Below are positions 24,653 through 30,822 of a stretch of DNA of 41,135 nucleotides, piece after piece (the stretch's first letter is position 1; each line of letters begins with the position of its first letter). The stretch lies in UHGV virus genome UHGV-0094207. One strand, 5' to 3'. The notes under the pieces are model-generated. The model was not told where the DNA came from, ran no database searches, and was given only the letters and a program-made list of their open reading frames with translations. The position numbers and the translations under genes were made by a program. This DNA is from a virus.

Positions 24653-24691
24653 TGAAATAGCGGCCTTCGGGCCGCTATTACAGGTGGGAAA

Positions 24692-24904
24692 ATGAAACTG
24701 ATTGCACTTAAACCGATTTATTTCGGCGGTACCGTCGTTACTGAGGGGCTTCCGCTGGAAACTCTGGAACAGCACGGTCGCGAGCTCATCAAAAAAGGCT
24801 ATGCGATGCTCGATGAATCAGAAAATCCTGCAGAGCAGGAACAGCAGCAGGAACAGCAGCAGGAACAGCCCGAAGTAAAAGCGGAAAAAAAGGCGAAAAA
24901 ATAA
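24692..24904 (+). CDS. Hypothetical small head-module protein with Q/E-rich repeat tail
   Basis: 70 aa; C-terminus '(QEQQ)x3...KAEKKAKK' encoded by a 12-bp tandem repeat. Confidence 0.4.
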   Translation: MKLIALKPIYFGGTVVTEGLPLETLEQHGRELIKKGYAMLDESENPAEQEQQQEQQQEQPEVKAEKKAKK

Positions 24905-26374: not shown

Positions 26375-26827
26375 ATGGCTGATAAAACTTCGCCAGAGTA
26401 CGCGATGCTGCCTGCTGGCACCGTCGTTATGTGGGGGGCTGCGGGCAGCAACGTAGCAACAATGAAACCACTCATTAACTGTAGAGCGCTGGGCGCTACA
26501 GGACAGACGGGCAGTTTTGTGGACTGCACTACGCTGATCGATACCAGTAAACAGTTTATCTCTGACCTGCCTGAAGGACCTGAAAAATCTCTGGGCTTTA
26601 TTGACGATCCAGCCAACCAGGACTTTGCTGATTTCCTCAACGCAGCAGAGAACCGGGAAACCGTACAGTTTTACGTTGAGTTGCCAAATGGTCGAACGGC
26701 GAACATGATTCTGGCCCTGTCTGGCTGGCAGATGAATGAAATTACTGCCCCGGCAAGTGAAGTCATTCAAATCACTGTTCAGGGAAAACAGAACAACATC
26801 ACCTGGGGTACCGCAGCTGGCAGCTGA
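26375..26827 (+). CDS. Major tail tube protein (lambda V-like)
   Basis: 150 aa followed by a strong terminator; position before the G/G-T chaperone pair. Confidence 0.7.
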   Translation: MADKTSPEYAMLPAGTVVMWGAAGSNVATMKPLINCRALGATGQTGSFVDCTTLIDTSKQFISDLPEGPEKSLGFIDDPANQDFADFLNAAENRETVQFYVELPNGRTANMILALSGWQMNEITAPASEVIQITVQGKQNNITWGTAAGS

Positions 26828-26845: not shown

Positions 26846-26872
26846 AGCCGCCTTCTGGCGGCTTTTTATTAT
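26846..26872 (+). terminator. Rho-independent terminator after the major tail protein gene
   Basis: agccgccttctggcggct hairpin followed by ttttatt. Confidence 0.7.
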
Positions 26873-26891: not shown

Positions 26892-27254
26892 ATGTCCGCC
26901 ATCGATGTCTCAGCATTGAAATCTGCTCTTCTGAAACCTAAAAGCGCCATTATTACTGCCGAAATCTTTGGCACGACCGTTTATCTTCGTCGCATGACGG
27001 CGGGTGAACTCATCGATCATGAAGAAGCGCTGCGTGACAGCCAGATTGCCGAAGATGCTCGTAAAGCCTCAGAACTCAGCGTGCAGTTGATTGTCGATTG
27101 TCTGGTTCAGCCCGACGGCAGTCCAATCTCAGTTGAAGACAAGCCCACCGCATCGGAGTTGCTGCAGGCACATGACAACGTGGCGCTGCTTGAAGCTATT
27201 GCCACCGTGAAAAAGCATGCCCTTGGTAAACTTGAGGATGCGGAAAAAAACTAA
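26892..27254 (+). CDS. Tail assembly chaperone G
   Basis: 120 aa immediately upstream of the tape-measure gene; ends in a slippery A-run. Confidence 0.7.
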   Translation: MSAIDVSALKSALLKPKSAIITAEIFGTTVYLRRMTAGELIDHEEALRDSQIAEDARKASELSVQLIVDCLVQPDGSPISVEDKPTASELLQAHDNVALLEAIATVKKHALGKLEDAEKN

Positions 27255-27493
27255 CCAACTCGCCCTGGCTTGAGCTGATTTTCTGGCTGGCTGACCGCTG
27301 GGGCGAGCCCGATCCATCAAAGATAGCTTCACTCCCGGTAGACACTCTCTACCACTGGCGCGCGTATTTCCTGCGTACTGGTGCCATCAGCCGTCCAGGC
27401 GAGGAGAGTGGGCCACCTCCTGAAAACCCGCCACCCGCTGCAGTCAGTAATGTTGACGATCAGTGCGCGGCCGTAATGAGAGCGTTAATGTAA
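26892..27493 (+). CDS. Tail assembly chaperone G-T fusion by programmed -1 frameshift
   Basis: Slippery heptamer A AAA AAC at 27245-27251 near the end of G; the -1 frame is open for 81 codons with no Met until near its end, and stops at TAA 27491-27493 overlapping the tape-measure ATG. Confidence 0.6.
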
Positions 27494-30400
27494 TGGCTGA
27501 CGTTGCCTCCCTTGCCGTCGGGCTGCATCTCAACGCAGCCAATTTTAAATCTCAGCTGATGGGTGCATACGGTGATGCTGAGAATTCCTCAAGGCGCTTC
27601 AATCGTAGCGCGCAGGAAGATGCAAAAAAGACCGATGAAGCCTATTCCCGAATGGGTAAAACCATCGCGGGAGTTGCCGGTCGTCTGGCGGGCTTTGCCG
27701 GTGCCGGGTTATCGCTCGGCGCGATCATCACGACTACGCGCGAATATGGACAGGCCCTGTCCGATCTGTCGGCTATCACTGGTGCCACCGGAGCCCAGTT
27801 AAAGACGCTTGATGAAGCTGCGCAGGAAATGGGGCGAAGCACTGAATACAGTGCGAGTCAGGCGGTGGAAGCCCTTAAGTTGATGGCATCCGCTAAGCCT
27901 GAACTTCTTCAGACCGCAGACGGGCTTACTGAGGCGACAAAGAGCGCGCTTACGCTTGCTCAGGCCGCAGGCTCAACTTTACCTGATGCAACCCGCACTC
28001 TTGCTCTTTCGCTTAACCAGTTCGGAGCGGGTGCTCAGGAGGCTGATCGCTACATCAACGTGCTGGCAGCCGGTGCCAAGTTCGGGGCTTCTGAAATTGC
28101 AGATACCGCCGCAGCTATCAAAAATGGAGGTGTGGCCGCTGCACAGGCAGGAGTCGGTTTTGAAACGCTGAATGCAGCAATTCAGGTTCTGGCCGAACGC
28201 GAAATCAAAGGCGGCGAAGCAGGCACGGCGCTTAGAAACGTGATCCTGGCGCTGGAGAAAGGTACCGACAAAACCCTGAAACCCTCGATTGTGGGGCTTA
28301 GCGGCGCGCTGGAGAATCTGTCGAAGAAAAACCTTTCCACTGCGCAGGCCGTGAAGCTCTTCGGCGTTGAGAACATCAACGCGGCTTCGGTGCTGGTGGA
28401 CAACCGCAGCAAACTTGATGCCCTGACACAGGCTCTCACCGGCACCCAGACGGCGCATGAGCAGGCCGCTATTCGCGTGAATAACCTGAATGGCGACATC
28501 ATGGGGCTGACCAGCGCCTTCGAAGGCATGATCATTAAAATTGGTCAAAGCAGTACCGGCCCACTGCGTTCAGGCATTCAGTCAGTAACCGATGGAATAA
28601 ACCTGCTCACCGATAATTTCAATGCTGTTGCAAGCGTAGCTTTGTACACATTGATCCCCGTTCTCTCGACAAAACTAACTGCAGGTCTTCGCGAAAACGT
28701 AAGCGCCTGGCAACAAAATCAGGCAGCCGTAAAAGCTGCGGCTGCTGCCCAGGCTGACGGTGCACGCAAAACGCTTGAAGCAACTGCCGCCACACTTAAG
28801 CGAAATGATGCCGAGTTTGGGTACTACCGCCAGATGGAGAAGATCGCCAGGCAACAAGGTCTGAACGTTAATTACCAGGGGGAGTTTAACCGGTTAATTC
28901 GAGAAGAAACCGAGCAAACGAATCTGGCAACCCGAGCGAAAATGCAGCTGGCTGCAGCAAATCGCCAGATCTCAGTATCTGCTCGGGCTGCCTCGGTTGC
29001 AGTTGGGCTTGCTCGTGGGGCTTTAGCTCTGGTTGGTGGGCCGTTCGGTGCTGCAATGCTGGCAGGTTCGGCGCTACTGTATTTTCATCAGCAGGCGAAG
29101 GACGCCCGGCAGTCAGCGATTAACCTTAAGGATGCTGTCATTGAGACTACTGCTGCGCTGATGCAGATGTCTGATAAACAGCTGGCCGTTAAGCAGATTG
29201 ACCTGCAGGACCAGTATGATAATCAGGTCACCCAGCGTAACCAGCTTATCAAGGAGATTCAGGACGCAGACAGCAGGCTTGATAGCCTCGGAGGTTTTGA
29301 CCCATTCCGACAGAAAAAAGGCGTAGAGGACAGTAAAAAACGAGCTGAAGCTGATCTCGAATCTGTGAATAAGGGGTTAGAAACAACACAGTCTAATCTT
29401 GAGAACGTCAGCAAGGCGCGCTTCTTGGTCCAGACAGGGATTGCAGATCAAGCCAAATCGCTCGCGAGTGACATCAAAACTATTACTGCGGAGACGGCTA
29501 AGGCCGGTGAGGGGGTTACTACTCCGTGGACCGGTGAAGATACTCAAAAGGCTAAGAAGGAAACTGTTAATCAGTACCTTCAGTTGCGCAGGGAAATCGA
29601 AGAAGCTCATGCAACCAGCCTTGGAAAAATTGATCTCCAGGAGAAAGCCAGTCAGGAAAAGCTAATCGCTGCGGCGCGTAAAAATGGGGCAAGCCAGCAG
29701 GACCTACAGCGTGCGCTGTTAATGAATGCTGATAATTACCAGAAGCAACGAGCTGAACTTGCCGAGCAGTACTCACCTGCGCGCTCGGCAATCAATCAGG
29801 AAAAGGAAGCCAGCCAGGATCTGAAATCGCTTCTTGATGCCCGCCTGCTCACTGAGAAGGAATACATGGCGGCGCGGGTGAAACTGTCACAGGAAACCTC
29901 CCGGCAAATTCTGCAGGCGCAGGCTGATGCTCTTTCGGCTCCGCGCATTGATCTTGGCGGTGATGTTGATCCGCTTGTTGCGATTCGCAATCAACTGGCG
30001 CAGCGACAATCGCTGTTGCAGGCGTATTACGCTGGTAATGCCATCAGTAAGAACCAGTACGAAATGCTGATGAAGCAAAGCAGTAAGGAATCTGCAGATG
30101 CACAGTATCAGACCGCGCTGGAATTATATCGCTCACAGAGTGACTTCAATAATCTGGCTATCGGCCTGGTTGAGGCTACTCGTGAGCGTACCACTAATGT
30201 CCTGACGGGGCTGCTGACTAAAACGCAGACCTTTAAAGAGGGCATGATCAACCTGTTCTCCACGCTCACTCAGTCGATAATTCAAAACCTCGTCGATATG
30301 GCAGCCCAGGCGTTGCTAACCAATACGATTCTGAGCTCCATCATGAGCGTAGGTTCGAGTGTATTTGGGGCTGTTGGTAGCAGCGCGGCAGCCAGTTCAG

Positions 30401-30822
30401 GAACAGCCATTGCCGACTATGGCAGCAACTTCCAGTTCAACGCTAAAGGCGGTGTTTATTCCTCATCAGATTTGAGCGCTTACAGCGGTCAGGTCGTCGA
30501 TAACCCTACATTCTTCGCTTTCGCAAAAGGTGCCGGGGTAATGGGGGAGGCTGGTCCAGAGGCAATCATGCCGCTAACCCGAGCCGCGGATGGGTCGCTT
30601 GGTGTGCGTGCTGTAAATAGTGGTGCAGCGGGAGGTGACACGGCACCGAAGGTTTATATCACCATCGATTCAAGCGGAAACACATCGACACAGGCACCTG
30701 CAGGGCTGGAACAATTCGGTTCTGATGTAGGCCGATACGTCGATCAGCGATACAAGCAGAATGTGATGCGTGATATCCGTCCTGGCGGCGACATCTGGAA
30801 CGCAATGAAAGGAACCCGATAA
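27493..30822 (+). CDS. Tail tape measure protein
   Basis: About 1,100 aa, largely coiled coil; start at the ATG coupled to the G-T stop (the ORF-track start 27463 is an in-frame upstream alternative). Confidence 0.85.
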   Translation: MADVASLAVGLHLNAANFKSQLMGAYGDAENSSRRFNRSAQEDAKKTDEAYSRMGKTIAGVAGRLAGFAGAGLSLGAIITTTREYGQALSDLSAITGATGAQLKTLDEAAQEMGRSTEYSASQAVEALKLMASAKPELLQTADGLTEATKSALTLAQAAGSTLPDATRTLALSLNQFGAGAQEADRYINVLAAGAKFGASEIADTAAAIKNGGVAAAQAGVGFETLNAAIQVLAEREIKGGEAGTALRNVILALEKGTDKTLKPSIVGLSGALENLSKKNLSTAQAVKLFGVENINAASVLVDNRSKLDALTQALTGTQTAHEQAAIRVNNLNGDIMGLTSAFEGMIIKIGQSSTGPLRSGIQSVTDGINLLTDNFNAVASVALYTLIPVLSTKLTAGLRENVSAWQQNQAAVKAAAAAQADGARKTLEATAATLKRNDAEFGYYRQMEKIARQQGLNVNYQGEFNRLIREETEQTNLATRAKMQLAAANRQISVSARAASVAVGLARGALALVGGPFGAAMLAGSALLYFHQQAKDARQSAINLKDAVIETTAALMQMSDKQLAVKQIDLQDQYDNQVTQRNQLIKEIQDADSRLDSLGGFDPFRQKKGVEDSKKRAEADLESVNKGLETTQSNLENVSKARFLVQTGIADQAKSLASDIKTITAETAKAGEGVTTPWTGEDTQKAKKETVNQYLQLRREIEEAHATSLGKIDLQEKASQEKLIAAARKNGASQQDLQRALLMNADNYQKQRAELAEQYSPARSAINQEKEASQDLKSLLDARLLTEKEYMAARVKLSQETSRQILQAQADALSAPRIDLGGDVDPLVAIRNQLAQRQSLLQAYYAGNAISKNQYEMLMKQSSKESADAQYQTALELYRSQSDFNNLAIGLVEATRERTTNVLTGLLTKTQTFKEGMINLFSTLTQSIIQNLVDMAAQALLTNTILSSIMSVGSSVFGAVGSSAAASSGTAIADYGSNFQFNAKGGVYSSSDLSAYSGQVVDNPTFFAFAKGAGVMGEAGPEAIMPLTRAADGSLGVRAVNSGAAGGDTAPKVYITIDSSGNTSTQAPAGLEQFGSDVGRYVDQRYKQNVMRDIRPGGDIWNAMKGTR

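Follow-up and report, generated by a model that had tools for sequence, protein, structure and literature searches.

The virus genome UHGV-0094207, a stretch of 41,135 nucleotides (nt) that we analysed as a whole and refer to as the window, carries on its plus strand a gene for a tail assembly chaperone, G (26892..27254), which by standard decoding yields a protein of 120 amino acids (aa). G lies between the gene for the tail tube protein and that for the tape-measure protein, as in the cassettes of tailed phages in which G is also made in a longer, frameshifted form, G-T. An original prediction had proposed that such a programmed -1 frameshift operates here. The 3' end of G reads GCG GAA AAA AAC TAA. 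The slippery heptamer A AAA AAC is indeed present at the end of G, at 27245..27251, in phase with the gene and in the X XXY YYZ register, and the 0-frame stop codon TAA (27252..27254) abuts it directly. After a spacer of 7 nt there is a predicted stem-loop (27259..27307), in which the arm CUCGCCCUGGC (27259-27269) pairs with GCUGGGGCGAG (27297-27307) around a loop of 27 nt. The T extension occupies the -1 frame (27251..27493), reads CTA ACC AAC ... ATG TAA, consists of 80 codons and a stop, and has no start codon of its own.

The -1 frame is closed upstream by a TGA at 27233-27235 and is then open from 27236 to 27490 (85 sense codons). Its translation, GCGKKLTNSPWLELIFWLADRWGEPDP...CAAVMRALM, agrees with the one given in the original prediction, which began KKLTNSPWLELIFWLADRWGEPDP; only the length quoted there, 81 codons, was a trivial miscount, since the frame has 82 codons when counted from the first AAA at 27245 and 80 past the shift junction. 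No ATG, GTG or TTG occurs in this frame before the last 6 codons, and the methionines, as had been noted, come only near the end, 6 codons and 1 codon before the stop. A listing of the open reading frames (ORFs) of the window contains none of at least 40 aa in the T frame. The terminating TAA (27491-27493) shares one A with the ATG of the tape-measure gene (27493-27495), the overlap that had been predicted, and the GTAATG context of this junction is kept in 86 of the 87 loci of the first set of relatives that we compared.

How much of this could arise by chance was estimated within the window. When the same 255 nt were shuffled, 4.6% of the shuffles kept an 85-codon frame open, and in-phase X XXY YYZ heptamers numbered 29 in the 10,559 codons of plus-strand ORFs of at least 100 aa. 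Among the window's A-runs of at least six, the one at 27245 is the only one at which the 0 frame ends within 2 codons and the -1 frame stays open for 82. The evidence from the window alone is only moderate: a chance of roughly 5% for the open frame, and heptamers that are not rare, leave some room for a coincidence of heptamer and open frame in which the 239-nt stretch between G and the tape-measure gene is an untranslated spacer. The decisive evidence is comparative, namely the conservation of A7C or A8C in nearly all related loci. A second candidate in the window, an in-phase A AAA AAG at 24886-24892, was rejected as incidental by the same comparison, for it is not conserved in relatives. 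It ends a 70-aa ORF (24692..24904; phrog_5463, function unknown) with a lysine-rich tail, and a slip there would fuse this ORF to the head-tail adaptor gene that begins at 24904, into which the -1 frame continues. In nearly all of 80 related loci GAA AAG AAG, GAC AAG AAG or a similar sequence stands in its place; since AAA/AAG or GAA/GAC changes break the run, it serves as a control for a heptamer that is not programmed. The small ORF itself, located between the capsid and adaptor genes, encodes a variable-length acidic repeat (EQQQ, EQP or PE units); its relatives (L119-L198) range from 56 to 133 aa, and it is absent from the Escherichia phages CharmingMan and Fostie.

The conservation of the site was examined in 117 loci, comprising 6 from phages, 80 from IMG/VR, 30 from GTDB species genomes and 1 from an E. 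coli chromosome, with identities down to about 37%; from these a gapless alignment of 55 distinct sequences of identical length was prepared. The A7C run is present in 116 of the 117 loci (as A8C in two, L115 and L116), and a stop codon, TAA or TGA interchangeably, follows it directly in 115. The genera that bear the heptamer are Escherichia, Enterobacter, Klebsiella, Yersinia, Xenorhabdus, Photorhabdus, Serratia, Providencia, Erwinia, Pantoea and Arsenophonus. In the alignment the heptamer region (columns 13-20) is invariant in all 55 sequences. Synonymous sites just upstream vary (GCG/GCC/GCA/GCT; GAT/GAC/GAA/ACC), yet neither GAG nor AAG ever replaces the codons of GAA AAA. The heptamer's final C (27251) is likewise invariant (55/55), even though a T there would leave both proteins unchanged (AAT for AAC, Asn, in the G frame; TTA for CTA, Leu, in the -1 frame), which argues for selection on the nucleotide itself.

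There is one clean exception to the adjoining stop codon. In a prophage of Erwinia typographi (L090, 1844-1880) the heptamer and the hairpin are kept, the stop is replaced by TTA and G is 8 codons longer. The single locus with a shorter run, A6, is that of Klebsiella phage Kpn74 (L005; OQ790078, 1530-1570), whose record has further one-base insertions or deletions and, across the tail genes, numerous tiny ORFs on either strand. The A6 most likely reflects uncorrected homopolymer sequencing errors. A tblastn search returned G-T of Kpn74 in one piece, and an in-frame G-T in this phage was considered and rejected because of the A6 run, the other indels and the shredded ORFs.

The pattern of substitution indicates that the coding frame changes at the site. 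In the T-only region of the 55 aligned loci, variable columns number 31, 25 and 63 of 78 each at the first, second and third codon positions of the -1 frame; in the last 48 nt of G they number 6, 5 and 16 at the corresponding positions of the G frame. The peak at third positions thus moves from the G frame to the -1 frame, and by this comparison the -1 extension is a protein under purifying selection. In every relative the open -1 frame extends back through the heptamer, to 7-76 nt before the G stop, and among the related loci we found none with G and T in one frame or with a canonical start for the conserved N-terminus of T. The codon-periodic substitution in the -1 frame, the invariant heptamer and the conservation of the T protein sequence across 10 or more genera contradict the untranslated spacer considered above, and we regard a chance coincidence as hardly credible.

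At the protein level, G matches Pfam PF16462, Phage_TAC_14, over model positions 2-113 of 113 (E 1.4e-31; 109.3 bits against a gathering cut-off of 22.1) and also matches phrog_25875 and phrog_344. We constructed the conceptual G-T fusion, in which G(1-120) is followed by LTNSPW and the rest of T to give 200 aa. Its residues 7-200 align with positions 2-195 of the 195 in phrog_25875, annotated "tail assembly chaperone", with no gap at the junction and an E value of 1.4e-80. The -1 part by itself covers positions 116-195 of that family (E 4e-31), and it also matches phrog_14748, a family of 73 positions and unknown function that looks like a collection of stand-alone calls of the T stretch. The original prediction had suggested comparing the -1 product with the T domains of tail assembly proteins; this comparison led to the annotated G-T family phrog_25875, and it gave no profile match to a Pfam or lambda T family. 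With 14 diverse T sequences no Pfam family was matched at E values up to 10, apart from one chance match to a domain of unknown function (DUF). The lambda-type T domain, which we take to be Pfam Phage_tail_T, was not matched by T of the window at the profile level, and BLASTP against lambda T gave an E value of 2.7. The N-terminus of T (27266-27375 of the window) can be aligned with residues 6-42 of lambda T (L118, 531-641) through a faint motif, LA.e.G.PD...W..fy, a likeness that hints at distant shared ancestry beyond the reach of Pfam. A search of PDB sequences with the G-T profile returned unrelated proteins, at best with an E value of 0.057.

T proteins are short and have a proline-rich middle. 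Their alignment contains 12 invariant columns; an invariant core, S..L...F..A...G..DP..I..LP......W.A, and a C-terminal helix resembling CAAVMRALM are separated by a variable proline-rich linker. A whole-database protein search with T alone recovered 18 clusters, 17 of which are short proteins of 57-96 aa, unnamed or called "hypothetical protein" and without a Pfam domain; one of them is a UniRef "Phage tail protein". The remaining cluster is a 114-aa PF16462 protein.

The claim that automated annotation would miss G-T was borne out. The closest phage records are those of CharmingMan and Fostie, at 89-90% DNA identity; in both, G and the tape-measure gene are annotated and the 239 nt between them are left empty, as is the same gap in an E. 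coli prophage annotated by PGAP. What has been deposited publicly are truncated T-frame calls, the "hypothetical proteins" P0003, P0004, P0010, P0011, P0016 and P0017 (70-79 aa, starting MIFWLADRWG or MILWLADRWG), whose first residue apparently corresponds to the Leu of ..ELIFW.., encoded by CTG 27274 of the window. Another record, P0018, is a frameshift-damaged G-T.

Such calls, made by gene callers in several genomes as ORFs of 57-79 aa, are what one would expect if T were initiated independently at a non-canonical start such as CTG 27274, with no frameshift at all. The -1 frame has no ATG, GTG or TTG where such a start would be needed, and no Shine-Dalgarno-like sequence was seen upstream of CTG 27274 on inspection by eye, a formal scan not having been made. 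This CTG lies in the loop of the hairpin directly after its first arm. An independent start would also leave unexplained both the invariant A7C run and the frame that is open across the heptamer in every relative, and the fused protein matches phrog_25875 as one unit. We consider independent initiation of T very improbable.

The region downstream of the heptamer was then assessed for RNA structure. The fold of 27252-27311 contains an 11-bp stem that starts 7 nt after the heptamer (minimum free energy, MFE, -24.3 kcal/mol). The stem is part of the MFE structure of 54 of the 55 aligned sequences, the outlier being an Arsenophonus sequence with a shifted stem. Across these sequences, many of which are closely related, standard pairs fill 88.9% of the cells, as against 31-49% after displacement of the 3' partners by 1-3 columns. 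Both sides have changed at 6 of the 11 pairs (31 cells), and none of 500 shuffles matched the observed covariation score or the percentage paired. The six pairs of the core (columns 29-34 with 70-75) are formed in 54-55 of the 55 sequences. Among the compensatory changes, the pair at columns 31/73 is A-U instead of G-C in Erwinia, Serratia and Providencia; that at columns 34/70 is G-C instead of C-G in 16 Xenorhabdus/Photorhabdus sequences, where Trp-Gly becomes Leu-Gly; that at columns 35/69 is A-U instead of U.G in six sequences; and that at columns 28/76 is U-A instead of C-G in four. In Providencia, UGG has become UAU opposite a change of CGC to AGA. Synonymous variation within the arms is low (0.44 bits each for Ser, TCG in 51/55, and Gly, GGC in 50/55), compared with 1.8-1.9 bits for the Ala and Pro codons just outside them. 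From this covariation the 11-bp stem appears to be maintained by compensatory change, suggesting selection that is independent of the protein.

No further stimulatory element was identified. A pseudoknot is unsupported, since synonymous sites just 3' of the second arm vary freely (CCC/CCT, GAT/GAC and all four CCN). The only alternative proposed by RNAalifold is an upper stem closing through an invariant Ala codon, without covariation. The Shine-Dalgarno-like GAGGA upstream (27234-27238) was rejected as a stimulator because it is GAAGAC or GGAAACC in many relatives. A search of 27100-27600 against Rfam, at E values up to 1, returned no family. The original prediction would have been abandoned had the extension shown no similarity to T domains and had there been no stimulatory structure downstream; neither is the case, for the extension falls within an annotated G-T family and the stem downstream of the heptamer is backed by covariation.

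From the observed sequence anatomy, family membership, conservation, coding-frame switch and RNA covariation we infer slippage at some frequency, its stimulation by hairpin and stop, and roles for two proteins: the locus is very probably a programmed -1 ribosomal frameshift that gives two tail assembly chaperones from one start codon. In the proposed mechanism the majority of the ribosomes translating G would stop at the TAA at 27252-27254 and release the 120-aa G. A minority would slip back by one base on A AAA AAC, where AAA-AAC re-pairs as AAA-AAA, and would then read CUA ACC AAC UCG and onwards in the -1 frame to the TAA at 27491-27493. Their product would be a G-T protein of 200 aa and about 22 kDa in which LEDAEKN is joined to LTNSPWLELIFWLADRWGEPDP, and trypsin would release the junction peptide NLTNSPWLELIFWLADR. 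A low frequency of slippage would probably be set by the adjacent stop, as a slow-to-decode codon in the A site, together with the 11-bp stem-loop, which at a distance of 7 nt would be positioned at the entrance of the mRNA channel during decoding of the heptamer. If labour is divided as in lambda, the tape-measure protein would be coated by G and by the G portion of G-T, and the T portion would bring in the tube protein; neither G nor G-T is expected in the finished virion. Frameshifting of G-T is widely conserved, and in lambda the ratio is 30:1, or about 30 G per G-T (PMC5009743); a low yield fits this role. Stops and other slow-to-decode codons in the A site are known to favour slippage (PMC5009743), and IS1 provides a proven natural example of -1 frameshifting on A_AAA_AAC (PMC4066793).

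The same run could act at another level. RNA polymerase slipping on A7 might add one A and place G and T in one frame in a fraction of the mRNAs. The junction would then read LEDAEKK followed by LTNSPW, and the peptide LTNSPWLELIFWLADR, preceded by K-K, would be diagnostic of it. In favour of this, the run is invariant, apart from the A8 of two loci; yet it is never lengthened in the 117 loci beyond what the preceding codon contributes. For productive transcriptional slippage E. coli generally requires a run of some 9 or more, and 7 is short. A hairpin downstream of the run has not been transcribed when the polymerase reaches it and cannot act on the enzyme; it sits at the canonical ribosomal spacing of 7 nt. 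Nor does polymerase slippage account for the invariant C at the end of the run, where a change to T would be synonymous in both frames. Slippage of the polymerase on A or T runs is an established route of recoding (PMC5009743), and the very poor performance of A_AAA_AAC as a ribosomal site in E. coli reporters leaves some room for another route. On balance we judge transcriptional slippage decidedly improbable.

The conserved stop codon raises the question of which tRNAs would slip. At a "shifty stop" the peptidyl-tRNA-Asn alone would slip from AAC to AAA with UAA in the A site; the frameshift would be real and its product identical to that of tandem slippage, and the hairpin would be irrelevant to it or would serve mRNA stability or folding. 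The TAA or TGA directly after the heptamer in 115 of the 117 loci speaks for such a slip, as do the promotion of frameshifting by slow A-site codons, stops included (PMC5009743), and the very slight response of A_AAA_AAC to downstream stimulators when the reporter has no stop next to the heptamer. The Erwinia typographi prophage, which retains heptamer and hairpin with TTA in place of the stop, does not fit it, and neither does a hairpin 7 nt from the heptamer under selection of its own; the adjacent stop, moreover, may be merely the end of G. A slip by one tRNA and a tandem slip give the same protein and are not separable from sequence. We regard the shifty stop as rather unlikely.

Several points weigh against a programmed ribosomal frameshift at this locus, or against parts of the proposal. 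In E. coli reporters A_AAA_AAC gave 0.16% frameshifting when no stimulator was present, 0.19% when that of IS911 was added and 0.74% when that of IS3 was, the values for A_AAA_AAG being 0.29%, 4.3% and 39%, respectively (PMC4066793, Table S3). With a heptamer that is nearly inert in such reporters, very little G-T may be made, or part of it may come by another route. The hairpin of the window only modestly beats its shuffles (z -2.1; 11 of 200 fold as well). Its arms also encode the conserved S-P-W and R-W-G-E, and their conservation is partly at the protein level. Because the stem was defined on one of the sequences in the alignment, the control with slid partners is inflated. T is tied to lambda T only weakly (hhalign E 0.0058, probability 6%, 36 columns), and the evidence found for this phage and its relatives comes from sequence.

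The genes around the cassette follow the usual order for a tail module. Directly upstream of G is the major tail (tube) protein gene (26375..26827; Pfam Phage_TTP_13, 5.6e-72; phrog_158, major tail protein), preceded by head-tail adaptor, head closure, tail terminator and Neck1-type genes. The tape-measure gene (27493..30822; Pfam PhageMin_Tail; phrog_339, 1.2e-176) is followed by minor tail genes resembling lambda M, L and K. Between the tube gene and G there is a terminator-like hairpin, AGCCGCC-TTCT-GGCGGCT followed by a T-run (26846..26872), at a place equivalent to that of a putative terminator annotated in phage phiKO2; it may reduce the expression of G, T and the tape-measure gene relative to that of the tube protein. 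A second terminator-like hairpin, GGCTGC-ATCTCAAC-GCAGCC with a weak T-run (27521-27540), lies 28 nt inside the tape-measure gene and is probably a chance match. A third, GC-rich hairpin, GCGGCC-TTCG-GGCCGC (24661-24676), is located just 3' of the stop codon of the major capsid gene and has no clear T-run.

The nearest described systems are those of the linear-plasmid prophages phiKO2 of Klebsiella (gp13/gp14) and PY54 of Yersinia (ORF14), whose proteins are homologues with about 46% identity over the fusion. Their DNA has a GCG GAA AAA AAC TAA identical to that of the window, and they have in common with it the T start SPWLELIFWLADRWGEPDP, the arms of the hairpin, the junction TAATG with the tape-measure gene and, ahead of G, an element resembling a terminator. 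In phiKO2, gp14 has been annotated manually, in two pieces, as a "putative programmed frameshift from Gp13"; in PY54 the frame downstream of ORF14 is unannotated. A frameshift in the G-T family of the window has thus been proposed before. The phage of the window belongs to a different group, like CharmingMan and Fostie, in which the frameshift is unannotated and G and T have diverged from those of phiKO2. Gene position, the Phage_TAC_14 match, the match of the fusion to phrog_25875 and the phiKO2 annotation together sustain the assignment to the conserved G/G-T strategy. The locus is a real but ordinary instance of that strategy; the modest addition is the description of its cis elements and the evidence that present pipelines fail to report it. 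G-T is missing from the records of this phage group and from the PGAP prophage annotation, and a rule that looks for a Phage_TAC_14 gene, then A AAA AAC with a stop, then a hairpin would mend more than 100 records. The general picture of tail assembly is unchanged.

We tentatively suggest that the elements form a composite cassette, A AAA AAC with an abutting stop and a covarying stem-loop, in which the final C is kept beyond the need of either frame; possibly, too, this combination is new for G-T genes, as we did not find it described for them. If so, stop and hairpin would lift a sub-1% site to the level that tail assembly needs, and the family would offer a natural case, from Enterobacterales, of stop-assisted, hairpin-stimulated -1 frameshifting on a "eukaryote-type" heptamer. 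The family is a compact natural setting in which to see how an inefficient heptamer combines with an adjoining stop and a stem-loop to set a low ratio in enterobacteria.

Compared with lambda G/G-T, the window shares the position of the chaperone gene between the tube gene (V in lambda) and the tape-measure gene (H), a -1 extension without a start, and the apparent purpose, a low and fixed ratio of long to short product (PMC5009743). The lambda heptamer, however, is G GGA AAG and lies 6 codons before the G stop, whereas A AAA AAC of the window abuts that stop and is followed at 7 nt by a covarying stem-loop. G of the window belongs to another Pfam family, Phage_TAC_14, and its T has 80 aa compared with about 144 in lambda. 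The insA-insB' site of IS1 has the same A AAA AAC, a natural low-efficiency -1 site in E. coli (PMC4066793), but there the product is a transposase fusion and no established stimulator has been reported, in contrast to the conserved hairpin of the window. Sites of the E. coli dnaX and IS3/IS911 type resemble that of the window in their A-rich heptamer, short spacer and stable stem-loop. Their heptamer is A AAA AAG, the structure after it is a stem-loop or a pseudoknot, and a Shine-Dalgarno-like element may or may not precede it; the final C of the window cuts efficiency in reporters more than 20-fold; unlike sites of the dnaX type, that of the window has no conserved Shine-Dalgarno-like element upstream, and its 0-frame stop adjoins the heptamer.

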